Assembly (NCBI GenBank): GCA_963696395.1
Contig: CAVOJZ010000002.1
Coordinates: forward strand, 363,989 to 427,988
From: an uncultured bacterium
GTDB taxonomy: Bacteria; Patescibacteriota; Minisyncoccia; UBA6257; 2-01-FULL-56-20
DNA: 64,000 nucleotides
Direction: 5' to 3'
Below the pieces are notes generated by a model, which was not told the DNA's origin, made no database searches, and was given only the letters and a program-made list of their open reading frames with translations. Of this stretch, positions 3,269 through 39,227 are shown in pieces (the stretch's first letter is position 1; the number at the start of each line of letters is the position of its first letter). The position numbers and the translations under genes were made by a program.

Positions 3269-3994
3269 ATGACCCTCTCCATCGTCGTTCCCGCGCGGAA
3301 CGAGGAAAAGAACATCGAATGGATGCTCAAGCAGCTGCATGATAAACTAACCGACGTTGACCACGAAATCATCCTGAGCGACGATGCAAGCACCGATAAA
3401 ACCAGGGAAATCGCGGCTCGCTACGCAACCGTGGTTCCCCACATAACCGACAAGAAAAGAACTATTGCGGCAAACCGCAACAGCGGCGCAAAGGCGGCGC
3501 ACGGTGACTACATCGCATTCGTTGACGCGGATATCTTTGTTCCCGACCCGAACCGCTTCTTTAAAAAATTACTTTCCGATTTCGCCTCGCGACCCAACGT
3601 CGTCGGCGCAACGGTAAAGATCGAAATTCTGCCGGATCAGGCGTCATTTTGGGATCGCCTCATTTTATGGATCATTAACGCGGTCCGTCGGATCGATAAC
3701 AACGTATTCCACAACGGCATGGCGTCGGGCGAATTCCAAATGATCCGGCGCGATGTTTTTGAAAAACTGCACGGCTATAACGAATTTCTGCCGATCGCGG
3801 AAGATCTGGAACTTTTCGAACGCCTTTCAAAAGTCGGGCGCACGTACTTTGACTGGGACCTGAAAGTTTATACAATCAATCGGCGTGCCAAACAACTCGG
3901 ATGGGAAAAACTCCTCTGGCTCTGGGGCGTGAACTACGTTTATATGAAATTCCTCAAGCGATCCTACAGCACGGAATGGCCGCCGCGTTCATAA
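3269..3994 (+). CDS. glycosyltransferase family 2
   Basis: The N-terminus LSIVVPARNEEKNI...ILSDDASTDKT is the GT-A DxD-containing GT2 signature. Confidence 0.7.
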   Translation: MTLSIVVPARNEEKNIEWMLKQLHDKLTDVDHEIILSDDASTDKTREIAARYATVVPHITDKKRTIAANRNSGAKAAHGDYIAFVDADIFVPDPNRFFKKLLSDFASRPNVVGATVKIEILPDQASFWDRLILWIINAVRRIDNNVFHNGMASGEFQMIRRDVFEKLHGYNEFLPIAEDLELFERLSKVGRTYFDWDLKVYTINRRAKQLGWEKLLWLWGVNYVYMKFLKRSYSTEWPPRS

Positions 3995-4001
3995 TACGAA
4001 A

Positions 4002-4877
4002 ATGAAATTAAGTTTTGTCGTTCCTGCGCACAACGAAGAGGCCATCATCGGCAAATGTCTCGAAGCCATCGTTCGCGAATCACGCGACAGGAACGATGTT
4101 GAGATTATCGTTGTCGACAACGCCTCAACCGACAATACGGCGAAGGTTGCAGCAAACTATCCCGGCGTGACCGTGGTGCATGAACCCCACAAAGGGCTCG
4201 TATGGGCGCGGCGCGCGGGGTTTATGGCGTCGCACGGCGACCTCATCGCGAACGTTGATTCCGACAACATACTCACACCGGGCTGGATCACCAAGGTGAT
4301 GGCAGAGTTCGAAAAAGATCCGGACCTCGTGACGCTTTCCGGCCCGTTCATTTATTATGACCTTCCGTTGGCCGCCCGGTTCTTCACGCGCTTCTTCTAT
4401 TACATTTCCTACATTATCTATCTGCTGAACCGGTTTGTGTTCCGGATAGGATCGGTGGTGCAAGGCGGCAATTTTGTGGTCCGCCGCACCGCGCTCGATA
4501 AAATCGGCGGATTCGATACAAGCATCTCATTCTACGGTGAAGACACCGATATCGCGCGGCGCATGAGCAAAGTGGGCGAAGTGAAATTTACATTCAAGCT
4601 GCCGATTTTTTCCTCCGGCCGCAGGCTCGCGAAGGAAGGCGCGGTAACGACAGGGATCCGATACGGTCTCAATTATTTCTGGATCACTTTTTTTAAAAAA
4701 CCGCTCACAAAAACGTATACCGACTTCCGCCCACAGGAGGAAGGGACAACCCTCGCCTATAAGCCGCAGAATCGCTTCAAAGAATGGCTCCTTGGAATCG
4801 CGGCCGTTCTCGTCGCGGTCGTCATCGTAGCCCTCATTGCATACGGCATCTATATTCTCGTACAATCAATACTATGA
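4002..4877 (+). CDS. glycosyltransferase family 2 (C-terminal TM helix)
   Basis: LSFVVPAHNEEAIIGKCLEAI...IIVVDNASTDNT, with a C-terminal hydrophobic segment. Its TGA stop overlaps the next gene's ATG (ATGA). Confidence 0.7.
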   Translation: MKLSFVVPAHNEEAIIGKCLEAIVRESRDRNDVEIIVVDNASTDNTAKVAANYPGVTVVHEPHKGLVWARRAGFMASHGDLIANVDSDNILTPGWITKVMAEFEKDPDLVTLSGPFIYYDLPLAARFFTRFFYYISYIIYLLNRFVFRIGSVVQGGNFVVRRTALDKIGGFDTSISFYGEDTDIARRMSKVGEVKFTFKLPIFSSGRRLAKEGAVTTGIRYGLNYFWITFFKKPLTKTYTDFRPQEEGTTLAYKPQNRFKEWLLGIAAVLVAVVIVALIAYGIYILVQSIL

Positions 4878-5785
4878 AAATCATTGTAACCGGAGGCGCG
4901 GGGTTCATCGGAAGCCACGTCGCAGAGGCCTATAAAAAGGCCGGGCATCGCGTTGTCGTGATAGACAACCTTTCATCCGGCAAACGAAGTAACATTCCCA
5001 AGGGCGTGAAATTCCATAAAGCCGATATCCGCGACGAAGCGGCGATGAATCGGATCTTCAAGCTCGAGAAGCCGAACATCCTGAACCACCACGCGGCCTT
5101 CATCAGCGTTACGGAGTCCGTAAAAGAGCCGCAGAAAACATTTGCAATCAACGTCACAGGGACGCTCAACGTCATCATGGCATTTGCGCAATCCGGGCCG
5201 CAGAAAAAGAAGATGCTCTTCTCCTCAACCGGCGGAGCAATCTACGGCAATCCCAAAAAACTCCCGGCGGATGAATCAACGCCTCCGAATCCGTTTTCGC
5301 CCTATGCACTTGCAAAGTTGATAGACGAACAAATGATTGATTATTACTGCAAGACGAACGATATCACCTATCTCATCTTTCGCTACGCAAACGTCTATGG
5401 GCCCCGACAACGCGAGCAAGGCGGCGCCGGAATATTCCCCATCTTCACCCGCCAGGTACGCGAAGGGAAAACGCCAACTATTTTCGGCAACGGAAAAAAG
5501 ACCCGCGACTACGTTTACGTCGAAGACATTGCCCGCGCAAGTGTCCTCGGCTTATCGCGGGGGAAAAACGTCATCGTGAACATCGCATCCGCGCGCGAGA
5601 CGTCCGATTATTCCATTTTCAAAGCGATCGCAAAGAGGTTTGGATTTACCAAAGAGCCGCATTACACGCCCAAACGGAAAGGCGAAGTTGAACGCATATC
5701 CATGACTTACGCCAAAGCCAAAAAAATCCTCGGCTGGGAACCGCGATTCAGCCTCGAGGAAGGCATACGGAAAACGCTCGCATGA
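4874..5785 (+). CDS. NAD-dependent epimerase/dehydratase (UDP-hexose 4-epimerase-like SDR)
   Basis: MKIIVTGGAGFIGSH Rossmann motif and a YxxxK motif (YALAK). The start is chosen at the ATG at 4874 rather than the longer ORF-track start. ATGA overlap at both ends implies translational coupling. Confidence 0.7.
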   Translation: MKIIVTGGAGFIGSHVAEAYKKAGHRVVVIDNLSSGKRSNIPKGVKFHKADIRDEAAMNRIFKLEKPNILNHHAAFISVTESVKEPQKTFAINVTGTLNVIMAFAQSGPQKKKMLFSSTGGAIYGNPKKLPADESTPPNPFSPYALAKLIDEQMIDYYCKTNDITYLIFRYANVYGPRQREQGGAGIFPIFTRQVREGKTPTIFGNGKKTRDYVYVEDIARASVLGLSRGKNVIVNIASARETSDYSIFKAIAKRFGFTKEPHYTPKRKGEVERISMTYAKAKKILGWEPRFSLEEGIRKTLA

Positions 5786-7119
5786 ACTCAATGAACAGGC
5801 TCAAAGTATTTTTGTTTTTTGTCGGCGACGTGATCGCACTTTACGCCTCACTTTTTATTACCCTTTACATCCGTTACGGCAACTCGTTCTACGAACAATT
5901 CCTGGACAGCCACTTCGGCCCATTCAGTATTATTTTTGCTTTTTGGATTGCGCTCTTTTATATCGCCGGATTATACGACCTCCGTCGGCTTCGGAACAAC
6001 CTGAATTTTCTGAAAACGCTATCCTTGTCCCTTGTGATCAATGCCATCATTGCAGCGCTGCTTTTTTATTCCATCCCCGCGTTCGGCATCGCGCCAAAGA
6101 CCAATTTATTGATTTTTATCGCTATCTTCGCCGTCGTAGAAATTTTTTGGCGGCGGACCGCAAACCGCTTTATGACCTTCGGCGATGCACCTAATAAAGT
6201 GCTCATGGTCGGCAGTGGCGCCGTGGCACAGGAACTCAAGGCAACCATCCGCGAAAACTCCCAGCTTGGATATGAAATCAAAACCGAGCTGACCGACGAG
6301 CAGGCTTATGCCGCACCGGATTCCATCCGGACGATTGCCGAAAAGAACGGCATCAATCTTATCGTCGTACCCCATCAACTGAAGCGCGACGCACGGCTCG
6401 TGACGATTCTCTACGAACTCTTCGGTAGCGGAATTCTCATAACCGACCTCGTCGCATTCTACGAACTGGTGATGCGGAAAATTCCGCTCGCCCAGCTTGA
6501 AGAGGCATGGTTTCTCGAAAACATTGCTGCCGAAGTGCGCTTTTACGACCAGCTGAAGCGCGCGTCGGAATTTCTTGCAGCGCTCGCAATCGGCATCATC
6601 CTGCTTCCGTTTGAACTCCTGATTGCGATCATCATAAAACTCACATCCCGCGGACCGGTCATCTATAAACAAGTGCGCGTCGGCGAGAAAGAACGCGAAT
6701 TCACGCTCTATAAATTCAGGACGATGCGCGTGAACGCGGAGAAGGACGGAGCGGTCTGGGCCGGCGAGCGCGATCCGCGCGCAACGGCTTTCGGCCAGAT
6801 TCTGCGCATCTCGCACCTCGATGAATTGCCTCAACTTTGGAATATCGTGAAAGGCGACATCTCGTTTGTCGGCCCCCGGCCCGAACGGCCGGAGTTTGTG
6901 AAAAAACTCGAATCCGAAATCCCCTATTATGAAGTCCGCCTGCTCATTAAACCGGGTGTCACCGGATGGGCGCAGATCAATTACCATAAAGACACCGCAA
7001 CGGAAGACGTCATGCAAAAATTGCAATACGATATTTATTATCTAAAAAACCGCTCGATCATTTTGGATCTGGCGATTGTGCTGAAGACGCTGAGGTCGCT
7101 TTTTATCAACCCGGACTAG
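5782..7119 (+). CDS. polyprenyl-phosphate sugar phosphotransferase (bacterial sugar transferase, WbaP/CpsE-like initiating enzyme)
   Basis: N-terminal TM helices. The C-terminal domain reads KLTSRGPVIYKQVRVGEKEREFTLYKFRTM...DELPQLWNIVKGDISFVGPRPERPEF, the Bac_transf signature. Confidence 0.8.
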   Translation: MNSMNRLKVFLFFVGDVIALYASLFITLYIRYGNSFYEQFLDSHFGPFSIIFAFWIALFYIAGLYDLRRLRNNLNFLKTLSLSLVINAIIAALLFYSIPAFGIAPKTNLLIFIAIFAVVEIFWRRTANRFMTFGDAPNKVLMVGSGAVAQELKATIRENSQLGYEIKTELTDEQAYAAPDSIRTIAEKNGINLIVVPHQLKRDARLVTILYELFGSGILITDLVAFYELVMRKIPLAQLEEAWFLENIAAEVRFYDQLKRASEFLAALAIGIILLPFELLIAIIIKLTSRGPVIYKQVRVGEKEREFTLYKFRTMRVNAEKDGAVWAGERDPRATAFGQILRISHLDELPQLWNIVKGDISFVGPRPERPEFVKKLESEIPYYEVRLLIKPGVTGWAQINYHKDTATEDVMQKLQYDIYYLKNRSIILDLAIVLKTLRSLFINPD

Positions 7120-7124
7120 CGACG

Positions 7125-7601
7125 CTATTGCTTCGGTTTATTTTTGTGGAGTTTCTCAACAAGCCACGAGCTTGATTGCACTTTCCCGCCATGCCCAAGG
7201 TTATAAACAACCTTGCAGCCGATAGCTCCGCACGTTTCGACTTCAGAGCCCGGAATCGGCACGTCTGAAGGACTCCGGTCGCCGCCTTTTCCGAAAATAT
7301 GAGGCTTCAGCTTTTTGATTTCCGCAGAGACACCCATATCCTCGGGATTCGATCCGTGTCCGGTTATCACTACGCGGTCAACTGGCCACAAAGCCTCGAT
7401 GACCTCCTTCCGTTCCTGTTCCGGCATGAAGGCGTATCCCTTCTTTTTCTTCAGCCAGTTATCGTTGTTCAGAATGACGACAAGTTCGTCGCCCAACGCC
7501 CGTGCGTGCTCGAACATTCGCACGTGGCCGATGTGAATCGGATCAAAACCACCGCTTACAGCTACAACAACCTTATGCTTGGCGGCTTTTTTCTTCTTCA
7601 T
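7125..7601 (-). CDS. cytidylyltransferase-like nucleotidyltransferase (HldE domain II / RfaE_II-like, stand-alone)
   Basis: 158 aa. VVVAVSGGFDPIHIGH is the HxGH nucleotidyltransferase motif, and KGGD resembles heptose-1-phosphate adenylyltransferase domains. Confidence 0.5.
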   Translation of the reverse strand: MKKKKAAKHKVVVAVSGGFDPIHIGHVRMFEHARALGDELVVILNNDNWLKKKKGYAFMPEQERKEVIEALWPVDRVVITGHGSNPEDMGVSAEIKKLKPHIFGKGGDRSPSDVPIPGSEVETCGAIGCKVVYNLGHGGKVQSSSWLVEKLHKNKPKQ

Positions 7602-7768: not shown

Positions 7769-10000
7769 TTAATTTTGGATAATGGCGCACGAGCGAGGAA
7801 CATGCAGCGCCGGAGTTCCATCGGGAGCATCCGGTTCGATGACGGTGCTCGTGGCGCCGCTGCCGTCCTCGTCGACCGCAAGGACGGGGGTTGATGTTGT
7901 ATTGCTCACGGTGAGCGTCGCCGTCGATGACGCCGTTGCGAGCGGGACGTTGGAGTAGGTTGTGGATGCCGTGAGATGGGCGCTTGAATCATATTTCTTC
8001 ACTTTCACCTTTGCTTTCGCTGACGATACCGACGATGACGCCTGTTTGATAACTGTCCGGTAGGTGCTTGTTGCGGGCAGAGTGATAAAAGTGTTACCGC
8101 CAATCGTGTCGTAGGAACTGCCCGGGATACCGAGATCGGCGTCGCCGGCGCTGTTTAACCCAACATGATTCCCCGCCTGATCGTACACGTCAACCGTGCC
8201 CGAAGCGGAAACACTGATCTCAACCGTTGCAGGGCGTGCTGCGCCGCGTCCAAGCAGGCAATCTTCGGTATTCATGGAAACGCCGATTGATTCGAGCGAA
8301 AGCGATGAGGTTGCCCCTTGCGTGATCGCCTGGAGCAAAGCGAGTGATTCAGGCGCACGAACAAGACCCTGATGGTCAACTCCGTTTTCGGAATACAGAA
8401 CAAAATAATTCTCATAGCTGTTTGCAAGATTCATCGCCGAATCAACCGGCACGCTGCCGTCGCCATTTGCCCTTGTGATATCGATTGATCCATCGGCATG
8501 CAAAATATATTGCGCGGGCGTGGGATCTTCACAACCAACAATGTTATAGACGCGTGTGCTGCTTGAGCCGGAAGAAGCGCCGAGAACAACTCCGTCGAGC
8601 GGTCCATGAAAAGCGTCGGCTGAGGCGAGCAGGCCGCTATTGCGCGAGTCGGCCGGATCGGCCGTCAACAATGCATTCGTATCGTCGAAGCTTAGTACCT
8701 GCGTTGTGATATTTCCGGCATCGTCGAGGACGTCCCTCGATACATAGCCTCCTTCAACATCCACATATCGCCGGGATGGCAGAAGATCATACACTCCCGG
8801 CATGTTTACCGAAATGGATTTCACCTCGGCAGGATTCAAAAGAGAAAATGGTCCGAAGGTAAAACCAAGATCGTCACCGTATTGAAGCGCTTTAAAAATA
8901 TATGGTGCGCCGAGCTGGGGTGTCCCCACAAAAATGAGTTTGTCCACGAAAGATGTGTCGGACAGGGCGGCGAGATAATCCTTCACGGCCAGACCGCCCA
9001 TGCTATGTGCAATTATGGTTATCTTGCCGCTTGTCGAATGGCCGACGGCATTCTGGATTACCGCGCCGATTGAAGCTGCAGAGCTTGCAATAGAAAGCCG
9101 CCAGTCATATGGCGCCACAAAGAGATCCCGCCCCTCGGTGTAGCCATCATCGGTGAATGTCTTGATGAGATTTCCATAAATCGACTGGCTGAACGGGATC
9201 GGAATTAAAAGCCGATTGTACGTGCCGCTTGCTTCGCGGATGATATCACCCGCGACCATTTCAGTGCCTGGCGATTGCGTGCCGTCAGGCAACAACTTTA
9301 ACGCATCGAGATAATCGTCGCTTCCCGAATTTGCCATGTCGGTCACGTCGGGCCAGAGCTCTTTTCCGGTGACCGCGCTGCCGGGTGCGCCGACCAATTG
9401 CGAACCCATCACGCCGGGCACAATCACAATCGGTTCGTTGTCAAAGCCACTTGCAGTGATGAATGGATAAAAGGCATAGTAGTTTTGGACAAGCCCCGTA
9501 CCATATTCAAAATTGTCGTACATCGCCGTACCGATTCCGGGGGTGCCCATAAGAATAACGCTGCAGTTCTGGCGACTTTCGACGGTATCGAGGCGATAGT
9601 AGTGGTTCGGATCCAGCGGAATCGTGAGATCGGAGAAGGTGCTCTTGCTCACCACACCAATCGTAAAATTGGCATTGCCCGTGATGCTGAACGTATTTAA
9701 AAGCTGAGTGTAGTTTGAATCACCAAACTCCGTGAGCGAAATAATGGACGCGCCGGCATCCGGGCAATCCACCGTGCCTTCGAGCGTGAGCGATGTGATG
9801 GTCCCTGCGAAGCCGCGGCCGAGCTGATACCAATTATCGTCATACCAACTGCCCCGCGATGCCGAAGAGTCGTCGGTCTGCTGAAAAAGCACCTGATCTG
9901 CGCCGGCTGCACGGGCAATTGGAATCGCAACCCTTGCGAGCGTCAGCACCACAATCACGACGACCATCGTCCAGCGATCGAAATAAGAATATGTTGGCAT
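7769..10000 (-). CDS. large secreted/membrane-anchored alpha/beta-hydrolase (lipase/LCAT/PGAP1-like) with Ser/Thr-rich C-terminal region
   Basis: 743 aa. N-terminal hydrophobic anchor, VIVPGVMGSQL, and a GxSxG nucleophile elbow IIAHSMGGLAV. The C-terminal ~90 aa are a low-complexity S/T/A-rich stretch. Confidence 0.5.
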   Translation of the reverse strand: MPTYSYFDRWTMVVVIVVLTLARVAIPIARAAGADQVLFQQTDDSSASRGSWYDDNWYQLGRGFAGTITSLTLEGTVDCPDAGASIISLTEFGDSNYTQLLNTFSITGNANFTIGVVSKSTFSDLTIPLDPNHYYRLDTVESRQNCSVILMGTPGIGTAMYDNFEYGTGLVQNYYAFYPFITASGFDNEPIVIVPGVMGSQLVGAPGSAVTGKELWPDVTDMANSGSDDYLDALKLLPDGTQSPGTEMVAGDIIREASGTYNRLLIPIPFSQSIYGNLIKTFTDDGYTEGRDLFVAPYDWRLSIASSAASIGAVIQNAVGHSTSGKITIIAHSMGGLAVKDYLAALSDTSFVDKLIFVGTPQLGAPYIFKALQYGDDLGFTFGPFSLLNPAEVKSISVNMPGVYDLLPSRRYVDVEGGYVSRDVLDDAGNITTQVLSFDDTNALLTADPADSRNSGLLASADAFHGPLDGVVLGASSGSSSTRVYNIVGCEDPTPAQYILHADGSIDITRANGDGSVPVDSAMNLANSYENYFVLYSENGVDHQGLVRAPESLALLQAITQGATSSLSLESIGVSMNTEDCLLGRGAARPATVEISVSASGTVDVYDQAGNHVGLNSAGDADLGIPGSSYDTIGGNTFITLPATSTYRTVIKQASSSVSSAKAKVKVKKYDSSAHLTASTTYSNVPLATASSTATLTVSNTTSTPVLAVDEDGSGATSTVIEPDAPDGTPALHVPRSCAIIQN

Positions 10001-10052: not shown

Positions 10053-10061
10053 GCTATCGTA

Positions 10062-11543
10062 ATGCTTAATCGCCTGAAGTCTTTTCTTTTCAAGAACGAT
10101 ACGTCAAAGCAGACCGTTGCAAAAAATACAATCTGGTTGACCATCTCAAATTTTGGTGGACGCCTCATCAAAGCGGGCGTCATTGTCTATGGCGCGCGGG
10201 TTCTCGGTACCTCCAATTGGGGTGTTTTTTCGTATGCCATAACGCTCGCCGGCTTCCTCACGCTTTTTATGGATCCGGGGCTCAACAATATCATCATGCG
10301 TGAAATCGGAAAGGCCGACGACGAAAAGCGACGCACTATTTTCTCCACCACTTTCGCCATGAAAATGGTCTTGCTGGTCGCGGGCGTCTGCGTTGTCATT
10401 TTCATCGCCCCGTTTTTCTCAACGCTTCCCGGCGCAAAAGCGCTTTTGCCGATCGTTGCCATAATCCTTGGCCTCGATACAGTGCGCGAATTTCTCACGT
10501 CGTATGCACGCGGCATGGAGCGCATGGAATTTGACGCGGCAATATTCCTCCTTACCAATTTCGGCATCCTTGTCTTCGGGTTTATCTTCCTCGCCATGGC
10601 GCGGACTCCGTCCGCTCTTGCCTGGGCTTATGTCGGCGGTGATATTCTCGGCATCGCCCTCGCCGTTTTCATCGTCAGCACGTTCTTTAAGAGAATGCGG
10701 GAATATTTTTCGGCATCACTCATCGTGCCGATCCTTCAATCCGCATGGCCTTTTGCCGTGACGAGCGCGCTCGCTCTTCTTCTCACCAACACCGATATCC
10801 TGATCATCAGCTGGATAAAAACCGCCTCGGATGTCGGCATCTATGCATCCGCAATCCGTGTCTTGCAGGTGCTCTATCTCATCCCAACCGTTTTCCAATT
10901 CAGCACCCTGCCGCTCTTTGCGCGGTTCGCAAATAAAGACAATGTAAAGTTCCGCGCGGCGCTGGAGCAGACCGTCGGCCTCATATTCCTCGCTTCAATC
11001 CCCCTCGCCGTCGGCGGCGTGATCGTGGGCACAAGCCTCATGAGCTTCATTTTCGGCGCCGCCTATGCGGCAGGCGGAACATCGTTCAAGATACTCGCCA
11101 TCGGCCTCATGTTCGATTTCCCGGCGGTCGTGATAAGTTCCGCAATATTTGCCTACGACAAACAGCGCAGCCTCATTATCGCTTCCGCGATCGCCGGAGC
11201 GATGAACGTGGTGTTCGACATTATCCTTATTCCCCACTGGGGCATCAATGGATCGTCCGCGGCGACGCTCCTCGCTCAAATTGCCAGCAACTGGTATCTC
11301 TGGCACATGATGAAAAAAATAAATTACTTTGAAGTGTTGCCTTCGCTCAAAAAAATCATCGCCGCGAGCGTTGTCATGGGCGTGGCAACCTTCGCACTCG
11401 CCTATCTCCACGTTAATGTTGCTCTCACCATCATAGCCGGTGCGATCGTATACTTTGCCATGCTGCGATTGCTCCGCGAACCCTTGCTCATTGAAATCAA
11501 GCGCGTGATTACGCGAGCTGAAAGAGCCGAGGTGGTGGCATAG
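10062..11543 (+). CDS. wzx: Wzx-type polysaccharide/O-antigen flippase (MOP superfamily), copy 1
   Basis: 493 aa, about 12-14 TM segments, with the typical Wzx architecture and size. It is a paralog of 24144-25607. Confidence 0.65.
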   Translation: MLNRLKSFLFKNDTSKQTVAKNTIWLTISNFGGRLIKAGVIVYGARVLGTSNWGVFSYAITLAGFLTLFMDPGLNNIIMREIGKADDEKRRTIFSTTFAMKMVLLVAGVCVVIFIAPFFSTLPGAKALLPIVAIILGLDTVREFLTSYARGMERMEFDAAIFLLTNFGILVFGFIFLAMARTPSALAWAYVGGDILGIALAVFIVSTFFKRMREYFSASLIVPILQSAWPFAVTSALALLLTNTDILIISWIKTASDVGIYASAIRVLQVLYLIPTVFQFSTLPLFARFANKDNVKFRAALEQTVGLIFLASIPLAVGGVIVGTSLMSFIFGAAYAAGGTSFKILAIGLMFDFPAVVISSAIFAYDKQRSLIIASAIAGAMNVVFDIILIPHWGINGSSAATLLAQIASNWYLWHMMKKINYFEVLPSLKKIIAASVVMGVATFALAYLHVNVALTIIAGAIVYFAMLRLLREPLLIEIKRVITRAERAEVVA

Positions 11544-12413: not shown

Positions 12414-12414
12414 G

Positions 12415-31101: not shown

Positions 31102-31923
31102 ATGAAAGAAAGCACATTCGCAACAATTTACGCTACGGGTCTGTATAGGCTTACCCGGGATGCGTTCTGCAATGCAGGAGAACGAATCCTCGAAATCCGC
31201 CGCGAAGGGCTTGCCCCTGAAAGCAAGAAATCATTCCAGGACATCCGGACCAAAGGAGACATTGAAGCCGAATCGCTGCTCACCGCCTTTATAAAACAAA
31301 ACTTTCCGAGCGACGGCATCCAGGGCGAGGAAGGAACCTCTGAGTCTTTAACGGCTGATTACCTTTGGTACTTGGATCCGATCGACGGGACAACAGTCTA
31401 CGCCGCCGGAATGGATTACTTTGGGGTTTCAGGAGGGCGTGCGCAAAGCGGACGAGGCCACTTCGGTATTGTTCGTTTTCCCGCGCTCGGCTACACCGTC
31501 TTCGGCGGAAAATCCGGGGGCGGCTGGATAGATGACGGCACTACGGTCCGACGACTTCGGGAAAAACCCTCTCCCAAAAGCCTGCGCGAATCGACAATCG
31601 TACTCGACCTCAGCATCGACGAAGAGAAGAAATTCCGCGAACCATTTCAACGGGCATGCATGATGATCCTCAAGTTCGGCTCGTGCGTGTTCGAATGCTC
31701 ACTCGTCGCCCGCGGTCTCGTCGGCGGATATCTCAATAAGACCGCAAAGCGGCACGACGCCGCGGCGATATCCGTCATCGGCGAAGCCGAAGGCTGTATC
31801 GTAAACGATCTCGACGGTAAACCGATCGACCTCCGAAACGAGAATGTGCCATTCGCCATGGCCGGCAACCAGGCCATCATGGACGATATGCTCCTTCTCT
31901 ATCATCAGCTCGCGAAGCAATAA
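31102..31923 (+). CDS. inositol monophosphatase / CysQ family phosphatase (intact copy)
   Basis: WYLDPIDGTT and HDAAAISVIGEAEG motifs. A canonical GGAGGAG Shine-Dalgarno sequence lies upstream. Confidence 0.65.
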   Translation: MKESTFATIYATGLYRLTRDAFCNAGERILEIRREGLAPESKKSFQDIRTKGDIEAESLLTAFIKQNFPSDGIQGEEGTSESLTADYLWYLDPIDGTTVYAAGMDYFGVSGGRAQSGRGHFGIVRFPALGYTVFGGKSGGGWIDDGTTVRRLREKPSPKSLRESTIVLDLSIDEEKKFREPFQRACMMILKFGSCVFECSLVARGLVGGYLNKTAKRHDAAAISVIGEAEGCIVNDLDGKPIDLRNENVPFAMAGNQAIMDDMLLLYHQLAKQ

Positions 31924-31977
31924 AACGCTTCCAAAAAATAAACACCCCGTAGACCATGTATCGGTCTACGGGGATTT

Positions 31978-32706
31978 TTATCCTTTCCGCAACGCAAGCG
32001 CGTAGAGTTCGCTTGGGTCGCCTTTGAAGTTGAGTTTCACGGCCAGTTCTTTTTCGAGCGGCAGCACGACGCTGTCGAACGTCTCACGATGCGTCATTCC
32101 GTATTTCTGACGAAATGCCTCGTTCGCCCACTCATACCGCCCTCCGGGCTTGAATTCCGGGAGAAGGTCGTCGAACCGCTGTTTGTAGCCGACGATCTTA
32201 TCACCGGAAACACAATCATCGGCGTAATGCATCAGCTTGCCGCGGAAGTCGGCTTTTCCCGCGAGGATTCGATCGAGACCGAGATCGCCGGTCGTTTTTG
32301 CAACTTCCACAACCTCCGGTGAAAATCCAAGCTCGGTCAAAAACGCGCCCGCAGCCAGTTCGGCTTCCCGATTCGCCGTGTGGCGATCCACTCTTTCACG
32401 CTTCGCCCTTTCACCAGCCTCCCACTCCCGGCGCTTGTAAGCGTCGTGCACGAGGCCGGCCTCAACGAGTATCGGGTCGCCATCGCTCAGGCAGTACGCC
32501 GTCCAGGCAACAACGACATTGTGCGCAACCACGTTTATCCAGGTTCGATTCAATTCCCCGTTAGCCCATCCCGGAGAAAGCAATCCTCCCTGTTCCCAGG
32601 CCGCGACCACTCTGTCGGGCACCATACTCACCGGCAATGCAGGCAGAAGCTCGTTGATACTCTTAATGCGGTTCTCCGACTCAACAAAATAATTGGATAC
32701 CTCCAC
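31978..32706 (-). CDS. hypothetical protein, possible HD-domain phosphohydrolase
   Basis: The VVAHNVV...LVHDAYK...HYADD pattern is suggestive of HD-domain metal ligands. The assignment is weak. Confidence 0.3.
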   Translation of the reverse strand: MEVSNYFVESENRIKSINELLPALPVSMVPDRVVAAWEQGGLLSPGWANGELNRTWINVVAHNVVVAWTAYCLSDGDPILVEAGLVHDAYKRREWEAGERAKRERVDRHTANREAELAAGAFLTELGFSPEVVEVAKTTGDLGLDRILAGKADFRGKLMHYADDCVSGDKIVGYKQRFDDLLPEFKPGGRYEWANEAFRQKYGMTHRETFDSVVLPLEKELAVKLNFKGDPSELYALALRKG

Positions 32707-32855: not shown

Positions 32856-34091
32856 TTATCCAAGTTTCACCACATGCGGCTCCTTGGGGAATGGCAAAAC
32901 GCAATCTCCCTTAAATTTGTAGTGATCGGTAAGATGCTTCGTGATTTCGTCTTTAAAGTTCCACGCCATGAGGAAAATACAATCCGGCTTTGTCGCCATC
33001 ACGTCGTCAGATTTCTTGATTGGAATATGCGTACCAGCCGTAAACCTTCCTTGCTTCAGCGGGTTAAGATCGATAACCACGGGCACGATGTCGGTTGTGA
33101 TCCCGCAGAAATTCAACAGCGTTGAGCTGCGTGCGGACGCGCCCCAGCCGGCAATCTTTCGGCCCTTGCTTTTCTCGTCTTTCAAAATTGCCATGAGCCT
33201 GTCGCGATGCGCGATCGAACGTGCGGCAAAATCTTTCCAGCTTGAAAACTCGTTCGTCTTGGCGGCGTTCTCGGCCTGCCGATACTTCACGACATTCATC
33301 GAGGGAGTCACCTCGCCTTTCCGCGCGTAATAGACAAGCGATCCCCCGCTGATGGGACTTTCTGTTATATCAAAGACATAGAGACCGAAATCATTCAACA
33401 GTTTTTCCATACTCTTCACTGTGAAATAACAGAGGTGCTCGTGATAGATGGAGTCGTAGTGAAGTTCATCCAAAATCACTTTCCCGTAGTGGGCTTCGAT
33501 TGCGATCGTACCGGTTTCGCTCACGGACTTCTTCAGGCCTTCGACGAAATCCCGCGTGCCGGCAACATGCGGCAAGACATTGCGGGCAAAAACGATCTCC
33601 GCCTCGCCGTTCGCGGCAACAATATCATCGGCGACCTTCGATCCGAAGAACAAGGGATCGGTCGGGATCCCCGCATCGCGCGCCATTTTGGCGACATTTT
33701 CCGCCGGGTCAATGCCAAGCACCGGAAAATTATTTTTTTGGAACGGGATGAGGAACGTACCGTCGTTGGAAGCGATTTCCAGAACGTATCCCTTTTCGCG
33801 CGCGTGCGGCGTGCGGGATACAGCGGACTCATAGAAAGTCTGCGCATGCTTGTGTGCGGTGAGCGAGGTGCCCGTAAGCCAAAGATAGTGCTTAAAAAGA
33901 ATTTCCGGTTCAATGGTTTCGTTAAGCTGTACCAGAGTGCAATTATGGCAATAACTCAGAGACAATGAGTAGGCGTCGTCTTTCAGGTCAGCCCGATCCG
34001 GCAGGGAATTCGCAAGCGGCTGCTTTCCGAGATCGAAAAATCCCTCGATTTTATTGCTTCCGCAGACACGACAAGAAGAAATTGTTTGCAT
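32856..34091 (-). CDS. NDP-hexose C-methyltransferase (TylCIII/TcaB9-like: N-terminal Zn-ribbon, SAM methyltransferase, C-terminal C-MT domain)
   Basis: N-terminal CRVCGS...CHNCTL zinc ribbon, a class-I methyltransferase core (LEIASNDG), and a total length and layout matching sugar 3-C-methyltransferases. Confidence 0.6.
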   Translation of the reverse strand: MQTISSCRVCGSNKIEGFFDLGKQPLANSLPDRADLKDDAYSLSLSYCHNCTLVQLNETIEPEILFKHYLWLTGTSLTAHKHAQTFYESAVSRTPHAREKGYVLEIASNDGTFLIPFQKNNFPVLGIDPAENVAKMARDAGIPTDPLFFGSKVADDIVAANGEAEIVFARNVLPHVAGTRDFVEGLKKSVSETGTIAIEAHYGKVILDELHYDSIYHEHLCYFTVKSMEKLLNDFGLYVFDITESPISGGSLVYYARKGEVTPSMNVVKYRQAENAAKTNEFSSWKDFAARSIAHRDRLMAILKDEKSKGRKIAGWGASARSSTLLNFCGITTDIVPVVIDLNPLKQGRFTAGTHIPIKKSDDVMATKPDCIFLMAWNFKDEITKHLTDHYKFKGDCVLPFPKEPHVVKLG

Positions 34092-34135: not shown

Positions 34136-35029
34136 CTACAGCCTCGTCCACCCGTCCGGAACCACATCCTCATTCCCCTGTGACGACGGGCTCCATCGCG
34201 CAGGCGCAACCACAATCTTTCCGGGATTTTCATTCAGCCAGGCACCCCACCAGGAAAAACTGCTGTTCGTAATCACGTTATGCTTGCACATCGACATAAG
34301 TTGGAGATGATAGCTTGCCTTTGGCCCTTCCGACGCCCGATCGATATACGTTGTCGGGAATGGAGGTTTTATATTTTCTCTGCACCACGCAATGTCGTCC
34401 GAAAAGATAAAAAACTTAGGATTTTTTACATGTTCATCGATGTAGGCGATTGCTTTGTCATAATAAGAGGAGTTGGTTTCTCCGTAAAGACTAGTGTTCT
34501 TGGGGATTAAATAGTCCGTACGCCGGACATGAAGCGAAACCGAATTTGACTCTCTGATATCTTTCGAGAGATTAAGTGCGTCGCCTTCGAGCGCGTGCTT
34601 AAATCGAAATTCTTTCCGCAATTCCTCTTCGATATCTGCGAAATAGCCAGGCGTCTGCCAGTATCCCCAAATAAGAATATTTCCCCTTGCATCGACGAGG
34701 TTTCGATCGAACACAAGTTCCTGCTTTTCTTTTAAAATTTTCTGGATGCCAAATGAATTTTTGATCTTGAGAAGTCCTAAATCGAGGCCAAGCCAGAGCC
34801 CAGGAACCGACATTGCGGTTGAGAGCTTCGAGAGCGTCGTAAACTTCGGCGTGATGTCAAAAATGTCGAGGTCGTATTCACGAAAGGTGAACTGCTTTCG
34901 TGGAAACCGGTCGTTCAGGTAGGTCGAGTCAATGAGTAAGGGGTCGTTATTTCTTTTTGCAATGCCCAATCCTGCAGCATATTGGAACATCTGATTTCCC
35001 AAACCGCCGCGCAAAAGTACAGTCACCAT
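34136..35029 (-). CDS. glycosyltransferase family 11 (alpha-1,2-fucosyltransferase-like), copy B
   Basis: LLRGGLGNQMFQYAAG is the GT11 hallmark. Confidence 0.75.
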   Translation of the reverse strand: MVTVLLRGGLGNQMFQYAAGLGIAKRNNDPLLIDSTYLNDRFPRKQFTFREYDLDIFDITPKFTTLSKLSTAMSVPGLWLGLDLGLLKIKNSFGIQKILKEKQELVFDRNLVDARGNILIWGYWQTPGYFADIEEELRKEFRFKHALEGDALNLSKDIRESNSVSLHVRRTDYLIPKNTSLYGETNSSYYDKAIAYIDEHVKNPKFFIFSDDIAWCRENIKPPFPTTYIDRASEGPKASYHLQLMSMCKHNVITNSSFSWWGAWLNENPGKIVVAPARWSPSSQGNEDVVPDGWTRL

Positions 35030-35039: not shown

Positions 35040-37012
<1,973 letters not shown>

Positions 37013-37090: not shown

Positions 37091-37747
37091 TTACTTCTTC
37101 GCGCTGGACTTCGTGGTTGACGGTGTCTGCGTAGCCATAAACTGCTGCAAGCTCATTGCTATGCGCGTATCGCTCGGCCAGTTCATGAGAATTTTTTGTG
37201 CAACGGAAATGGTGTCGCTCACGTCGCCGGCGGCACGATAAACATCGAACAATCCATAGAGTGGCTGAGGGCGATTCGGGCCGAGCATTTGGCCTTCCTG
37301 GTACCAATGCTCCGAAGCGGCGAGATAGGTGGGATTACCGGTTCCCGCAAAAGCAATCTCATTCACTGCACCTTCAAGATACAAATCCTGCCCGAAACTC
37401 ATGCCCTTCCCACGATTAAGAATCGGATCGTAATAATTATTTAGGAATCCGACAAGCGCCGCGGTCGAAGTTGCATTGTTCCCTTGTTGCTGGACGAATG
37501 CCAAAACGCTGTTTGCAAGATTTCTTACAAGCTCTTCCTGGCCGATCGGCGCGTAATAGTCCAAGGGGCCTGAAACACGGGTCTCAAGATCTTGAAGTGA
37601 TGTTGCCGGATTCGTCTGGAGCGATTGAAGCGTGCTGATGAATCCCTCCGCCTTGCGCATCGGTCGGTAGGATCCGAGGTAGCTCACGCCCAAAACAAGG
37701 ATAACGATGATGATTGCGGTAAGTTGTTTGTAGGTTCGGTCTTCCAT
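37091..37747 (-). CDS. hypothetical protein with N-terminal TM anchor
   Basis: 218 aa with a single N-terminal hydrophobic helix and no recognisable motif. Confidence 0.3.
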   Translation of the reverse strand: MEDRTYKQLTAIIIVILVLGVSYLGSYRPMRKAEGFISTLQSLQTNPATSLQDLETRVSGPLDYYAPIGQEELVRNLANSVLAFVQQQGNNATSTAALVGFLNNYYDPILNRGKGMSFGQDLYLEGAVNEIAFAGTGNPTYLAASEHWYQEGQMLGPNRPQPLYGLFDVYRAAGDVSDTISVAQKILMNWPSDTRIAMSLQQFMATQTPSTTKSSAKK

Positions 37748-37757
37748 GTTTTTATTG

Positions 37758-39227
37758 TTACGCGGCTTTTTGGTGCGCGTGCGCGGAGAAGTAGTAGGTT
37801 GCGAACCCGAAGAATAGGAACAAGTTGATGTACATGGGGAAGACGTCGAAAATGGCGAGACCCTGGACGAGATATGCCACCGGCAATGCCAAAATCGCGC
37901 CCTTTAGAACCGTCGATGCATTTGCATGCTCGCCTCTCTTGTGAAGGTCGCGCCGGCGGAAGAATTCCCAGAAGATTACGAAGAAAATGCTTGCGTACGC
38001 AAGAAGTCCGATAAGTCCCGTCTCGGAAAGATAATCAAAGACGATGCTGTGTGCACGGTCGAACCAGGTTTCCGTATTCTGGTTCGGCACATAGAACCGC
38101 GGATCGAAATACCTGTCATACACCGCCGTGAAATTTTCCGGACCCCATCCGAAAACAGGCCGCGCAAGGAATCCCTGCCACGCTTCACCCCAAACCCAAA
38201 GGCGGGTTTGCGCCGTAGAGTCGGACAGGCTGATTTGCAACAACCGCCCTTCCGGCAAATTCTGCACGAATGTGCTGTTGCGCTCGGCGTAAGCTCCGAC
38301 GCCCAATATGATAAGTAAAATAGCAACCGCCGCAGACCACTTCCTGACCTTCACGCTGCCCGTGAAGGCAAAGTAGGCGAGGAGGGCAATCACGCCGGCA
38401 CCAAGACCAAGGAACGCGCCGCGCGTTTGCGTGAGGATGAAGAAGAATAAGAATACAACAAGAAGTGCGCTATAACCCCACGTGGCAAGTTTCGAGGATT
38501 TATTTTCAATCCTCCCGGCGAGCCAGAGATAAACCGCATAGAATGCCGCGAAAAGAAGATACGGAGCCACATAAGCCGGGTTACCAAGCGAACCTTCAAA
38601 ACGACCGTCGATCAAAATGTGCCACCAGCCTGCCGGAGCTCCCCCGCCGGCGTAAGGACCGATAAAGCCATTAACCATATAGTTTCCGAGAAGGCCGTAC
38701 CCGATCATAAGCCCCGACGCAACGAGCGACCAGCGGAAAATATTCTTCCAATCGTTCTCCTCCTGGAAGAGCGTCACGAGGAGCATGAAGAAGATGTAGT
38801 AGTGAATCATCTGGAAGCCTCCTTCGCCGCGTTCATAGTTTGACCAGAACGCCGCATGCGCATCGAGTGCAAACGCGCAGGCGAGAAGGAACGCCGCCAC
38901 AAATGCCGTCACCGCAATAACAAGCGGCTTCTTGTAATTCGCTTTTATGAGATTTTTTATTTCGTCCTTGCGAGCTTCGAATGCCCAATAAAGGATATAG
39001 GCGATAAGCGAGAGCTCAACCGTGAAGCGGAAAAAATAATCCTTTCCGCCGATGAACGGGAAAAAAATTGAGTCCATCACGACCACGACCGCCAGCACGG
39101 ATATATAGAGATACCACTTTGAGATTTGCTTGAACGAAAACTTGAGGAATTTGCCGATGATACCGACGAGGAGCAGACCTGCAATTACGGACGTTACGAG
39201 CGGATAATTAAATATGGTGTCGGACAT
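37758..39227 (-). CDS. O-antigen ligase / Wzy-like polymerase family membrane protein
   Basis: 489 aa with about 12 TM segments. TQTRGAFLGLGAG and a periplasmic loop followed by GWGPENF are typical of the Wzy_C/O-antigen ligase family. Confidence 0.5.
   Translation of the reverse strand: MSDTIFNYPLVTSVIAGLLLVGIIGKFLKFSFKQISKWYLYISVLAVVVVMDSIFFPFIGGKDYFFRFTVELSLIAYILYWAFEARKDEIKNLIKANYKKPLVIAVTAFVAAFLLACAFALDAHAAFWSNYERGEGGFQMIHYYIFFMLLVTLFQEENDWKNIFRWSLVASGLMIGYGLLGNYMVNGFIGPYAGGGAPAGWWHILIDGRFEGSLGNPAYVAPYLLFAAFYAVYLWLAGRIENKSSKLATWGYSALLVVFLFFFILTQTRGAFLGLGAGVIALLAYFAFTGSVKVRKWSAAVAILLIILGVGAYAERNSTFVQNLPEGRLLQISLSDSTAQTRLWVWGEAWQGFLARPVFGWGPENFTAVYDRYFDPRFYVPNQNTETWFDRAHSIVFDYLSETGLIGLLAYASIFFVIFWEFFRRRDLHKRGEHANASTVLKGAILALPVAYLVQGLAIFDVFPMYINLFLFFGFATYYFSAHAHQKAA

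Follow-up and report, generated by a model that had tools for sequence, protein, structure and literature searches.

Introduction

The surface-glycan locus considered here, which occupies positions 3269–39227 of a 64,000-nucleotide stretch of DNA from an uncultured bacterium (contig CAVOJZ010000002.1 of assembly GCA_963696395.1, positions 363,989–427,988; the whole stretch is hereafter termed the window), has partial counterparts in several described systems. The GDP-heptose modification pathway of Campylobacter jejuni (PMC10680097) shares with it a SIS isomerase, a GHMP kinase, a HAD phosphatase and a nucleotidyltransferase, along with a cupin epimerase and extra reductases of the short-chain dehydrogenase/reductase (SDR) type. 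The present locus adds a thiamine diphosphate (ThDP)-dependent carboligase and a linked C-methyltransferase, neither of which is among the heptose-modifying enzymes listed for C. jejuni (PMC10680097). Further differences are that C. jejuni is a Gram-negative pathogen whereas the host here is a monoderm-type bacterium of the candidate phyla radiation (CPR), and that in this host the phosphatase and nucleotidyltransferase are fused and the epimerase is nearer to dTDP-RmlC. The Campylobacter capsule is, moreover, exported by an ABC transporter, whereas the present locus is Wzx-dependent.

The YerE/YerF pathway of yersiniose synthesis, together with ErwE, MMAR_2332 and JanthE, likewise features a three-domain ThDP enzyme resembling acetolactate synthase (AHAS), located in a surface-glycan cluster and adjoining an SDR. 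YerE-like enzymes, as which JanthE has been described (PMC12188165), attach a branch derived from a 2-keto acid to nucleotide sugars for surface glycans, at the C4 keto position (PMC12247030). They differ from the enzyme in the window in acting on CDP-3,6-dideoxy-4-keto-hexoses, the conserved neighbours here being GDP-heptose genes. JanthE differs further in its CDG motif, which was ruled out for the window enzyme, the canonical GDG being present.

With WaaL and with PglL/PilO/WsaB, the only Wzy_C-family protein of the locus (WzyC) shares the PF04932 domain, nine or more transmembrane (TM) segments and a large external loop with an invariant Arg and His. Conservation of one gene while the surrounding glycan genes vary is typical of glycan-promiscuous ligases. 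Unlike WaaL and PglL, WzyC here has a constant partner in a separate TPR protein anchored in the membrane (unkE), and to our knowledge no lipid A-core acceptor is to be expected in CPR genomes. Pathways to GDP-3-C-methyl-6-deoxyhexoses, of which a GDP-virenose route has reportedly been proposed for Coxiella burnetii, resemble the locus in combining Gmd, an Fcl-like enzyme and a C-methyltransferase of the TylCIII type in one operon with glycosyltransferases; the C-methyltransferase of the window is, however, also linked to heptose genes, and its substrate may be a 4-keto-heptose. In overall layout the nearest parallels are the galF-gnd O-antigen and capsule loci of Enterobacteriaceae and the O-glycosylation loci of Bacteroidota, which have the same fixed site, conserved ends, cassette-like middle drawn from a shared gene pool and Wzx export. 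They differ in that the present locus takes up ~4% of the coding capacity of genomes of only ~0.8–0.9 Mb, is anchored by rny and PAP2/DsbA, and carries a ligase-like gene and its TPR partner within the conserved end.

Members of the CPR (Patescibacteria) are usually described as metabolically minimal, host-dependent cells. The literature consulted on CPR glycans, the coverage of which was incomplete, comprises general remarks on glycosyltransferases and on phage-borne gmd/rmd with no account of this locus, and is thus weak evidence of novelty; glycosylation has been called "unexplored" even in cultivated Saccharibacteria (PMC11623550). Every component family is already known. Novelty lies in the host, an ultrasmall member of the CPR, and in how much of its genome the locus occupies; in a layout at a fixed site, with conserved ends, a variable middle and a core ligase-like/TPR pair as anchor; and in the repeated occurrence of a YerE-like ThDP enzyme together with GDP-heptose genes. 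The analyses described below make it reasonably probable that the window contains a native, site-conserved surface-glycan locus of Paceibacteria, the glycan being built on undecaprenyl pyrophosphate, flipped by Wzx and transferred by WzyC.

Gene Content and Host

When ~55 of the open reading frames (ORFs) of the window were scanned against Pfam and NCBIfam profile hidden Markov models (HMMs), positions 3269–39227 proved to be an unbroken run of glycan-biosynthesis genes, with gene-family E-values of 1e-14 to 1e-158 that lie far past chance. A preliminary description, made from the sequence alone, had sketched a heavily modified heteropolysaccharide or protein glycan, which stays the right range of products, and had allowed that most of its glycosyltransferase and epimerase calls might belong to unrelated families; the HMM searches instead bore out nearly every gene call. 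Thus an initiating polyprenyl-phosphate phosphoglycosyltransferase (PGT) was recovered (PF02397, 215 bits; TIGR03025, 349 bits against a cutoff of 295), as were two Wzx flippases (PF01943, 116 and 102 bits), one Wzy_C protein (PF04932, 73 bits), two GT11 proteins (PF01531, at 18360–19265 and 34136–35029), an FkbM methyltransferase (PF05050/TIGR01444), an aldo-keto reductase (PF00248) and a TylCIII-like C-methyltransferase with a full-length match to TcaB9 (3e-64). Gmd exceeded the TIGR01472 cutoff, while Fcl and the GDP-heptose genes (GmhA, HddA and an HddC–GmhB fusion) were identified by top NCBIfam matches that all fall below cutoff, and the several nucleoside diphosphate (NDP)-sugar epimerases and reductases amount to six extended SDRs beyond Gmd and Fcl plus an RmlC-like epimerase. 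The enzyme families for GDP-fucose, GDP-heptose, C-methyl and O-methyl chemistry were in this way confirmed. Of the seven GT2 proteins claimed, five ORFs matched GT2 models and one more is a probable GT-A enzyme; a seventh was not found. Genes that the description had passed over include those for the ThDP enzyme, which is the most distinctive enzyme of the locus, two proteins of the IMPase family, an HD-like protein, a cytidylyltransferase, an LCAT-like protein and, slightly beyond the stated interval, DedA and PAP2.

A search with RNase Y (rny) in a one-genome-per-species collection yielded the best 80 relatives, at 57–87% identity, all of them uncultured metagenome-assembled genomes and nearly all assigned to Paceibacterota, Liptonbacteria, Parcubacteria or other Patescibacteria; on sequence grounds the host is a Liptonbacteria-like CPR bacterium of the Paceibacteria. 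OY970126.1 is the closest complete chromosome among these relatives, and one of the two closest rny relatives is a complete chromosome of 827,485 bp. Proteins identical to those of the window were found on a contig of 913,682 bp; the locus, at ~36 kb and ~36 genes, is about 4% of a ~0.9-Mb genome. The rny gene itself (39269–40795, −, the sign here and below denoting the strand; PF12072, KH and HD domains) is a housekeeping anchor directly upstream of WzyC, lies outside the pathway and forms the locus boundary. Beyond it the right flank is of housekeeping character, with iPGM, RNase J, three aminoacyl-tRNA synthetases, SmpB and BacA.

Conserved Ends, Variable Middle and Native Origin

Direct computation underlies the gene families, the synteny, the native composition, the conservation of the cassette and the co-divergence of WzyC and unkE with the core genome. 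Window proteins were mapped by tblastn onto the 80 rny loci, and a PAP2 search of metagenome contigs from the other end of the locus supplied 24 loci (individual loci being denoted by L numbers); the variable middle of close relatives was read from contig fragments only. Relatives with rny of at least ~65% identity share the order iPGM (leftward), then rny, WzyC, unkE and usually gmd and fcl (all rightward), after which content differs by genome. This proximal block, rny–WzyC–unkE(–gmd–fcl), is present in 37–43 relatives, and the distal block, Wzx–cytidylyltransferase–SDR1–PGT–GT2–GT2–DedA–PAP2–DsbA, in seven long loci, GT2c standing ahead of Wzx in the order that the long loci share. The rny–WzyC–unkE anchor is carried by, among others, OY970126.1, JAHFLL010000001, VGJV01000001 and the contig of 913,682 bp. 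Both ends of the locus are consequently conserved, and its middle, at roughly 11.5–35 kb in the window, is variable. In one relative (L009) the site is empty, unkE being followed by a PyrD-like gene, PAP2 and DsbA; a Liptonbacteria contig sampled from both ends (L015 and L101) has the same interval at ~36.7 kb, and a related 37.5-kb contig (L113 plus L107) carries more than 25 glycan genes in one direction after rny–WzyC–unkE.

The preliminary description had termed the region an island. Its recent horizontal arrival from another phylum, or its origin as an assembly chimera, is an explanation that draws on the frequent mobility of glycan loci, on the shuffling of cassettes between relatives, on the identity of Gmd, which is unrelated to that of core genes (r = −0.04) and is compatible with exchange, and on the fact that the short-read assembly breaks inside Wzx2. 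Evidence of foreign composition was sought in GC content, tetranucleotides and codon use and none was found: GC is flat at ~0.51 across the window, tetranucleotide correlations of 4-kb locus segments with the housekeeping flank are 0.90–0.94 against 0.92–0.94 for the flank's own segments, and codon frequencies of locus and flank correlate at 0.96. Promoters of a leaderless type are likewise of one style inside and outside the locus, dozens of related genomes show synteny of both flanks and both end blocks, and the closest cassette homologues lie on related contigs with the rny–WzyC–unkE anchor (L113).

With regard to a chimera, an independent Logan assembly of run ERR11563597 contains a 27-kb contig identical to window positions 62–21,543 with 0 mismatches (100% identity over 21.5 kb) and a 17.7-kb contig covering 24,872–42,530, the rest of the window being tiled by Logan contigs. 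The 27-kb and 17.7-kb contigs meet, with a break at 24,872–24,901, inside Wzx2, where no repeat longer than 14 nt is present; since the ORF there is intact and aligns full-length with Wzx1, no mis-join is indicated, and the break may instead mark strain-level or population variation in the cassette. An exact-protein look-up with Wzx2 returned no match, the short-read contigs stopping inside that gene. The locus is thus native and site-conserved, neither a foreign island nor a chimera; recent acquisition or mis-assembly, largely refuted by these results, is very improbable, and any exchange of cassette genes appears to have taken place within the clade.

WzyC and unkE

WzyC (37758–39227, −), a polytopic protein resembling O-antigen ligases, matched PF04932 over residues 255–411 (2.2e-20, 73.4 bits, cutoff 31.7) and has nine predicted TM segments. 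Its conserved neighbour unkE (37091–37747, −) codes for a membrane-anchored TPR-like protein of 218 aa. Across 37 relatives, the identity of WzyC to its window counterpart rises and falls with that of rny (r = 0.86), as do the identities of unkE (r = 0.88) and iPGM (r = 0.93), and WzyC is kept in three loci (L008, L009 and L011) that have no adjacent glycan genes. A single-sequence search of the PDB with WzyC gave no match at E ≤ 1, and neither PglL_A nor Wzy_C_2 domains matched the protein. A profile built from 34 WzyC sequences matched the WaaL-type structure 7tpg (3.6e-10) and the 610-aa 9rmk, annotated "Oligosaccharyltransferase" (1.6e-7). Within the 34 sequences R342 and H393 are invariant, and the FDRAHS motif of the family is matched in the alignment by EHAHN and THSHN of 7tpg/9rmk; we take this loop Arg and His to be catalytic. 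Repeat-unit polymerases are usually the most variable genes of glycan loci, while ligases and oligosaccharyltransferases are conserved and glycan-tolerant. Because WzyC is conserved while the glycan genes vary, its assignment as a conserved WaaL/PglL-type ligase or O-oligosaccharyltransferase is favoured, roughly twice as strongly as that of a polymerase.

In a classical Wzx/Wzy pathway, WzyC would be the repeat-unit polymerase of a long capsule-like or wall polymer, the attachment of which would depend on genes in other parts of the genome for a ligase, such as LCP, and for a chain-length regulator. Such a scheme can point to the joint presence of PGT, Wzx and a Wzy_C-family protein, to the true polymerases that the family includes, and to the annotation of the profile's best structural relative as a "polysaccharide polymerase/ligase"; a polymerised linkage within the clade-conserved core would, furthermore, predict a conserved polymerase. 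Against it stands the core-like behaviour of WzyC, which tracks rny and persists in L009 in the absence of PGT, Wzx and glycosyltransferase genes, whereas O-antigen polymerases rank with the most divergent genes that such loci contain. Neither a Wzz/PCP chain-length regulator nor an LCP ligase was found in the scanned ORFs of the 64-kb window, although either could be elsewhere in the genome, and there is no second Wzy_C-like protein in the locus to act as ligase, its only proteins with at least four TM segments being PAP2, PGT, Wzx1, Wzx2 and WzyC. A polymerising WzyC is, in consequence of these considerations, regarded as unlikely. The label "Wzx/Wzy-type" that the region had been given accordingly holds for a lipid-carrier, Wzx-dependent system, while "Wzy-type" is doubtful for a locus whose sole Wzy_C protein is a vertically inherited core gene.

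Several points tell against assigning WzyC as a transferase to a surface acceptor. WaaL/PglL-type ligases and Wzy polymerases are not distinguishable by sequence, and co-divergence with the genome would be expected too of a conserved polymerase whose target is a linkage in a conserved core. The 64-kb window shows neither an acceptor protein nor an LCP ligase or chain-length regulator, and the structural models of unkE and of the putative transferase unkC (see below) are of low to moderate confidence. The model of unkE (pLDDT, a predicted model-confidence score, 68.8) is all-alpha with a generic TPR/14-3-3 fold that assigns no function; in a relaxed Pfam scan of the hypothetical proteins a TPR_14 match at 0.21 was at noise level. 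Homologues of unkE number 457, and those with a source name are all from this clade.

One relative, L027, has a WzyC orthologue at 11608–12951 with an in-frame stop, which may be a pseudogene or an assembly error.

The Heptose and ThDP Cassette

The four activities needed for GDP-heptose, GmhA, HddA, GmhB and HddC, are all present in the window, and the same set occurs in L107 and L109. The GmhA-like sedoheptulose-7-phosphate isomerase (29320–29940, −) has a SIS domain (PF13580, 1.5e-17; TIGR00441, 1.6e-27, below cutoff), and the HddA-like D-glycero-D-manno-heptose-7-phosphate kinase (29950–30975, −) has both GHMP domains, N and C (NF049969, 1.7e-45, below cutoff). The remaining two are joined in one protein (21841–23031, −), in which an HddC-like nucleotidyltransferase (PF00483; HddC NF049965, 3.6e-23) is fused to a GmhB-like HAD-IIIA phosphatase (GmhB NF006506, 7e-39), a fusion found also in L107, L109 and L112.

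Adjacent to the fusion are candidates for subsequent modification of the heptose. SDR5 (23016–24053, −), an extended SDR with orthologues of 73–75% identity in L107 and L109, has its best PDB matches in 6vo6/6vo8 (4.3e-31; next match 1e-20) and is a candidate GDP-heptose C4-dehydrogenase of the Cj1427 type. SDR4 (20993–21844, −; PF01370, 7.5e-39), also an extended SDR, is a candidate 4-ketoreductase; its PDB matches are MoeE5 (8e-22) and 2pk3 (2e-16), the latter a GDP-6-deoxy-D-lyxo-4-hexulose reductase, and its likeness to GDP-4-keto-6-deoxy-mannose reductases is moderate. Next to it lies an RmlC-like cupin of the NDP-4-keto-sugar 3,5-epimerase family (20368–20928, −; PF00908, 3.6e-57; TIGR01221, 166 bits, above cutoff).

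The ThDP-dependent, YerE-like enzyme (25710–27464, +) is a protein of 584 aa with TPP_enzyme N, M and C domains that scores below every AHAS equivalog cutoff. Its best PDB match is JanthE (8rph, 6e-89, 302 bits), by a modest margin over the rest, which are annotated acetolactate synthases at no more than 268 bits. In the window and in L107, L108, L109, L111 and L112 the gene stands in a glycan cluster beside a reductase and without branched-chain amino-acid genes. The reductase in the window, SDR6 (27471–28319, +; extended SDR, PF01370, 1.6e-33), has an orthologue of 52% identity that in L107 and L108 immediately precedes the ThDP enzyme, and is a candidate side-chain or 4-keto reductase partner for it. 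A rhamnosyltransferase-like GT2 follows (GT2e, 28347–29261, +; PF00535, 22.6 bits, just under cutoff; TIGR01556, 3.1e-27, below cutoff), as a GT2 does after the ThDP enzyme in L107, L108 and L109.

In L107 and L109 the order RmlC–HddA–GmhA–SDR5–HddC/GmhB–SDR4–SDR6 (or SDR3)–ThDP–GT2 forms one co-directional operon with 42–75% identity to the window, where the same nine genes make up three adjacent transcription units. A more distant marine ThDP homologue, in L112, sits with a C-methyltransferase, a cupin and a nucleotidyltransferase–HAD fusion. The combination of sugars had been called unusual, which is so by comparison with textbook loci, but the heptose/ThDP cassette recurs within the clade. 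Since this context pairs the ThDP enzyme with GDP-heptose genes, we infer that the enzyme would branch a GDP-4-keto-heptose; it may work like YerE on a different substrate, and the nine-gene cassette points to the synthesis of a C-branched heptose.

A number of observations weigh against a branched heptose. The characterised YerE-like enzymes all act on CDP-3,6-dideoxy-4-keto-hexose (PMC12247030). The CDP-glucose pathway was not found in the locus (TIGR02622, no more than 74 bits, cutoff 278; TIGR02623, 74 bits, cutoff 300) and its HMM scans gave no match to 3-dehydrase families, so that with no CDP-dideoxyhexose genes present the known YerE substrate is not available here. We know of no precedent for a heptose as substrate of a YerE-like enzyme. 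The cupin is closer to dTDP RmlC (3e-39) than to the C. jejuni GDP-4-keto-heptose epimerases in the PDB (8dco, 1e-12; 7m14, 4e-11), while RmlA, RmlB and RmlD are not present in the locus by NCBIfam scans. The structures 6vo6/6vo8, on which the assignment of SDR5 leans, are presumably those of C. jejuni Cj1427, the GDP-heptose C4-dehydrogenase. Lastly, GmhA, HddA, HddC, GmhB and Fcl all score below their NCBIfam equivalog cutoffs, and because this applies to most of the sugar-pathway enzymes the substrate assignments rest on family and gene context.

Fucose Genes and C-Methyltransferase

Gmd (35993–37012, −) scored 525 bits with TIGR01472 against a cutoff of 415 and is 72–80% identical in 28 relatives regardless of rny divergence (r = −0.04). 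It is accompanied by a GDP-L-fucose synthase-like protein, Fcl (35040–35984, −; NF047922, 8.9e-90, 301 bits, cutoff 500), and by GT11b (34136–35029, −; PF01531, 3e-34, full length), orthologues of which, at 43–60% identity, follow gmd/fcl in seven relatives.

The neighbouring gene (32856–34091, −) codes for an NDP-4-keto-sugar 3-C-methyltransferase of the TylCIII/TcaB9 type, in which the Zn-binding N-terminal, S-adenosylmethionine (SAM) methyltransferase and C-terminal Methyltransf_14 domains are all present (PF08421, 66.7 bits; PF13489, 53 bits; PF08484, 155 bits), and which has full-length PDB matches to TcaB9 (3.3e-64), MtmC (2.5e-63) and KijD1 (1.8e-59). With no RmlA or RmlB, only Gmd and the Cj1427-like SDRs could supply 4-keto sugars, and a GDP-linked substrate is inferred; it could be either the Gmd product or a 4-keto-heptose. 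The C-methyltransferase gene travels with heptose genes in L039, L109 and L112.

Proposed Assembly of the Glycan

In the following scheme, the nucleotide carriers, the order of the enzymatic steps, the branched-heptose product, the choice of a ligase over a polymerase and the acceptor are deduced rather than computed. The PGT at 5782–7119 would start a glycan linked to undecaprenyl pyrophosphate, on which two conserved GT2 enzymes, helped by SDR1 and the cytidylyltransferase, would build a core common to the clade; five or six further transferases (GT2c, GT2d, GT2e, the rare GT-A enzyme and the two GT11 proteins) would then add strain-specific sugars. GDP-L-fucose would be made by Gmd and Fcl. 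A heptose (or 6-deoxyhexose) would be oxidised at C4 by the Cj1427-like SDR and epimerised by the RmlC-like cupin, and the resultant 4-keto intermediate would be reduced, or 3-C-methylated by the TcaB9-like enzyme, or branched at C4 by the ThDP enzyme with a 2-keto acid, in which last case the SDR adjoining the ThDP enzyme could reduce the side chain. FkbM would add O-methyl groups. Wzx1, of the conserved block, and Wzx2, associated with the cassette, would flip the lipid-linked glycans, and WzyC with its TPR partner unkE would transfer the glycan en bloc to a surface acceptor, which may be a surface protein (pilin or S-layer) or the cell wall. DedA, PAP2 and BacA would recycle the lipid carrier.

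One PGT and two flippases may be compatible with either one glycan or two. If there are two, one would be conserved across the clade, the work of the distal block (PGT, GT2a, GT2b, SDR1, the cytidylyltransferase and Wzx1), and the other strain-specific, made with the variable cassettes and exported by Wzx2, an arrangement that overlaps the scheme above except in the number of products. The two Wzx paralogues are 58.7% identical over 482 aa; in relatives Wzx1 keeps its place with the PGT block, whereas Wzx2 heads the ThDP operon, and a further Wzx accompanies the cassette in L109. Wzx flippases usually prefer their cognate unit, which counts in the same direction. The PGT at 5782–7119 is, however, the only initiating PGT within the 64-kb window, which would require that both glycans begin with the same first sugar or that a second initiator lies elsewhere. 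The formation of two products is accordingly a serious possibility, if one that falls somewhat short of an even chance.

The Conserved Distal Block

The partial gene at the left edge of the window is the DsbA of the distal block. Beside it lies a PAP2-family membrane phosphatase (564–1235, −; PF14360, 6.6e-08; five predicted TM segments), a candidate undecaprenyl-pyrophosphate phosphatase whose orthologues, at 51–80% identity, adjoin DedA and DsbA in 24 metagenome loci. The DedA/VTT-family membrane protein (2629–3240, +; PF09335, 1.6e-13) adjoins PAP2 in relatives too, and is a candidate for the undecaprenyl-phosphate recycling flippase function known from DedA/UptA. A minus-strand ORF at 2581–3249 (unkB) was dropped as spurious, the overlapping plus-strand ORF being DedA. 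Between DedA and PAP2 the window has a 444-aa protein (1257–2591, −) with no family match (best GH1, E = 0.053, at noise level), which was not found at this position in any related distal locus.

Two glycosyltransferases follow DedA: GT2a (3269–3994, +; PF00535, 3.3e-26), with orthologues of 39–56% identity in L083, L092, L095 and L103, and GT2b (4002–4877, +; PF00535, 3.9e-33), with orthologues of 44–68% identity in most distal loci. SDR1 (4874–5785, +), a GalE-like extended SDR (PF01370, 2.5e-61; TIGR01179, 187 bits, below cutoff) that adjoins the PGT in L085, L099, L101, L104 and L105, is probably an NDP-hexose 4-epimerase supplying the initiating sugar. The PGT itself (5782–7119, +), an initiating polyprenyl-phosphate sugar-1-phosphate transferase, has six predicted TM segments (PF02397, 6.8e-64; TIGR03025 as given above) and orthologues of 48–77% identity in distal loci. 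A small cytidylyltransferase-like enzyme (7125–7601, −; PF01467, 2.1e-13), with PDB matches to ethanolamine-phosphate cytidylyltransferase (1e-12) and TagD (2e-8), is among the most conserved distal-block genes (orthologues of 64–71% identity) and probably makes a CDP-alcohol or other NDP donor. Wzx1 (10062–11543, +; PF01943, 2.3e-33, 116 bits, cutoff 28) has 11 predicted TM segments and orthologues of 46–57% identity at the same position in relatives.

The LCAT-like alpha/beta-hydrolase (7769–9967, −; PF02450, 1.2e-18), a protein that begins with a TM helix and has a C-terminus rich in Ser/Thr, was not found between the cytidylyltransferase and Wzx in related distal loci; it and the protein at 1257–2591 are insertions specific to this window. 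The LCAT-like protein may lie outside glycan synthesis. Because CPR bacteria are generally thought to be without de novo lipid synthesis, it is a possible surface lipase or acyltransferase scavenging host lipids; alternatively it could be a glycosylation target.

Remaining Genes of the Variable Middle

GT2c (11571–12413, −; PF00535, 6.7e-31), whose orthologues of 38–64% identity flank Wzx in L083, L099, L101 and L105, is adjoined by GT2d (12415–13305, −; PF00535, 3.6e-34). SDR2 (13259–14332, −), an extended SDR that contains an insertion and matches PF01370 (8e-42) in two stretches, is by its PDB matches to the NDP-sugar 4-epimerases 4zrm (2e-37) and 6zl6 of the 4-epimerase type, and has an orthologue of 64% identity beside heptose genes in L039. 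The FkbM-family protein (14346–15251, −; PF05050, 2.7e-19; TIGR01444, 106 bits, above cutoff) is a probable sugar O-methyltransferase, and the aldo-keto reductase (15276–16193, −; PF00248, 1.3e-51) is probably a sugar or side-chain ketoreductase. SDR3 (16193–17263, −), an extended SDR 37% identical to SDR5 with its best PDB match in 6vo6 (1.5e-20), is a candidate NDP-sugar C4-dehydrogenase paralogous to SDR5; in L109 an orthologue of 53% identity immediately precedes the ThDP enzyme.

The protein unkC (17260–18363, −), with an N-terminal TM helix and GT-A-like D-x-D motifs, had no HMM match and only five homologues among 5.8 billion proteins in a word-indexed search. An AlphaFold2 model (five sequences, pLDDT 51.6), used only to back the motif evidence, mostly matched GT-A transferases, and unkC is a probable GT-A-fold glycosyltransferase of a very rare family. 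GT11a (18360–19265, −; PF01531, 6.2e-28), of the alpha-1,2-fucosyltransferase family, is 37% identical to GT11b.

An IMPase-family phosphatase gene (19496–20320, −), a single, otherwise well-conserved frame of 275 codons with PF00459 on both halves, is interrupted by an in-frame TAA at 19972–19970. The stop aligns with a Gln of the intact L109 orthologue, the change being CAA to TAA, and since the independent Logan assembly has the same stop it looks like recent pseudogenisation and not a sequencing error. The intact orthologue in L109 stands beside the ThDP enzyme, for which reason the gene is counted as a cassette member. A second, intact IMPase-family sugar-phosphate phosphatase (31102–31923, +; PF00459, 5.3e-30) adjoins HddA. 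Convergent with it is a gene for a 242-aa protein (31978–32706, −) in which HD-like motifs can be seen, with no HMM match in Pfam, NCBIfam or the relaxed scan. The extra flippase of the variable region, Wzx2 (24144–25607, +; PF01943, 3.7e-29, 102 bits, cutoff 28), has 11 predicted TM segments.

Biological Significance

A genome of ~0.9 Mb thus commits ~36 genes to a costly and chemically elaborate surface glycan, at a site that is conserved clade-wide while its content is shuffled, a pattern that elsewhere marks diversifying selection by phages, hosts or predators. A broader proposal, which is tentative and somewhat doubtful, is that the lineage as a whole possesses a general surface-glycosylation system in which a core WaaL/PglL-like transferase and its TPR partner would link glycans to the wall or to surface proteins, hypervariable cassettes at the fixed site would determine the glycan structure, a ThDP-branched GDP-heptose would constitute an undescribed higher-carbon sugar, and the glycan would act as a "barcode" for host attachment and phage evasion in probably episymbiotic cells. 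Should the glycan serve in recognition of the host, it would be relevant to the way in which uncultivated members of the CPR select partners and attach to them. The compact nine-gene cassette also allows the question to be asked of whether ThDP-dependent branching extends from CDP-dideoxyhexoses to GDP-heptoses. In practical terms, rny–WzyC–TPR ... PAP2–DsbA provides a genomic marker for typing "glycotypes" in Paceibacteria metagenomes, and WzyC with unkE is a candidate transferase pair for glyco-engineering.

Transcription Units and Expression Signals

The tight packing of genes noted in the preliminary description was evident in 4-nt ATGA overlaps at 21841–21844, 17260–17263 and 18360–18363, a 1-nt overlap at 16193 and a 1-nt spacer at 12414. 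The operon that it had drawn from 24053 down to 19496 runs from 24053 to 20368; the remainder, from 20320 to 19496, is the separate interrupted IMPase-family gene, with its own promoter, ribosome-binding site (RBS) and terminator-like hairpin.

Ten transcription units were predicted. In most transcription units the first gene is preceded by a TATAAT-like box that begins 12–15 nt before the ATG, and is without a Shine-Dalgarno (SD) sequence, as for example upstream of 3269, 10062, 24144, 34091, 39227, 40939, 47423, 53975 and 55258, and internal operon genes are also without an SD sequence. This arrangement is common to locus and housekeeping genes, and suggests that leaderless transcription and translation are widespread in the lineage. 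Only three locus genes, the two of the IMPase family and that for the HD-like protein, have a full sigma-70-type promoter, a leader of ~25–55 nt and GGAGG. The interrupted IMPase gene has the promoter TTGACG-16-TATAAT and a GGAGG RBS, its intact counterpart has TTGACA-16-TATAAT at 31021–31048 (12/12 matches), and the HD-like gene, which likewise has its own SD sequence, has a promoter with 11/12 matches at 32778–32751. The latter two genes, being convergent, share a strong bidirectional terminator at 31945–31973.

Other Features of the Flanks

The housekeeping flank contains a BacA undecaprenyl-pyrophosphate phosphatase (55258–56118, +) and a cyclopropane-fatty-acyl-phospholipid synthase (CMAS, 8e-87; 60312–61451, −), which represent lipid-carrier-recycling and lipid-modifying functions in a reduced genome. 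A 1189-aa class-I synthetase resembling IleRS (48412–51981, −; tRNA-synt_1, Anticodon_1 and DUF5915) has a His_Phos_1 domain inserted at residues 510–676, an unusual combination. A small membrane protein of the Phage_holin_4_2 family (42582–43073, +) adjoins iPGM, as does its counterpart at 2565–2921 of L113; because it is next to iPGM in the window and in this relative alike, the gene looks chromosomal and not part of a prophage.

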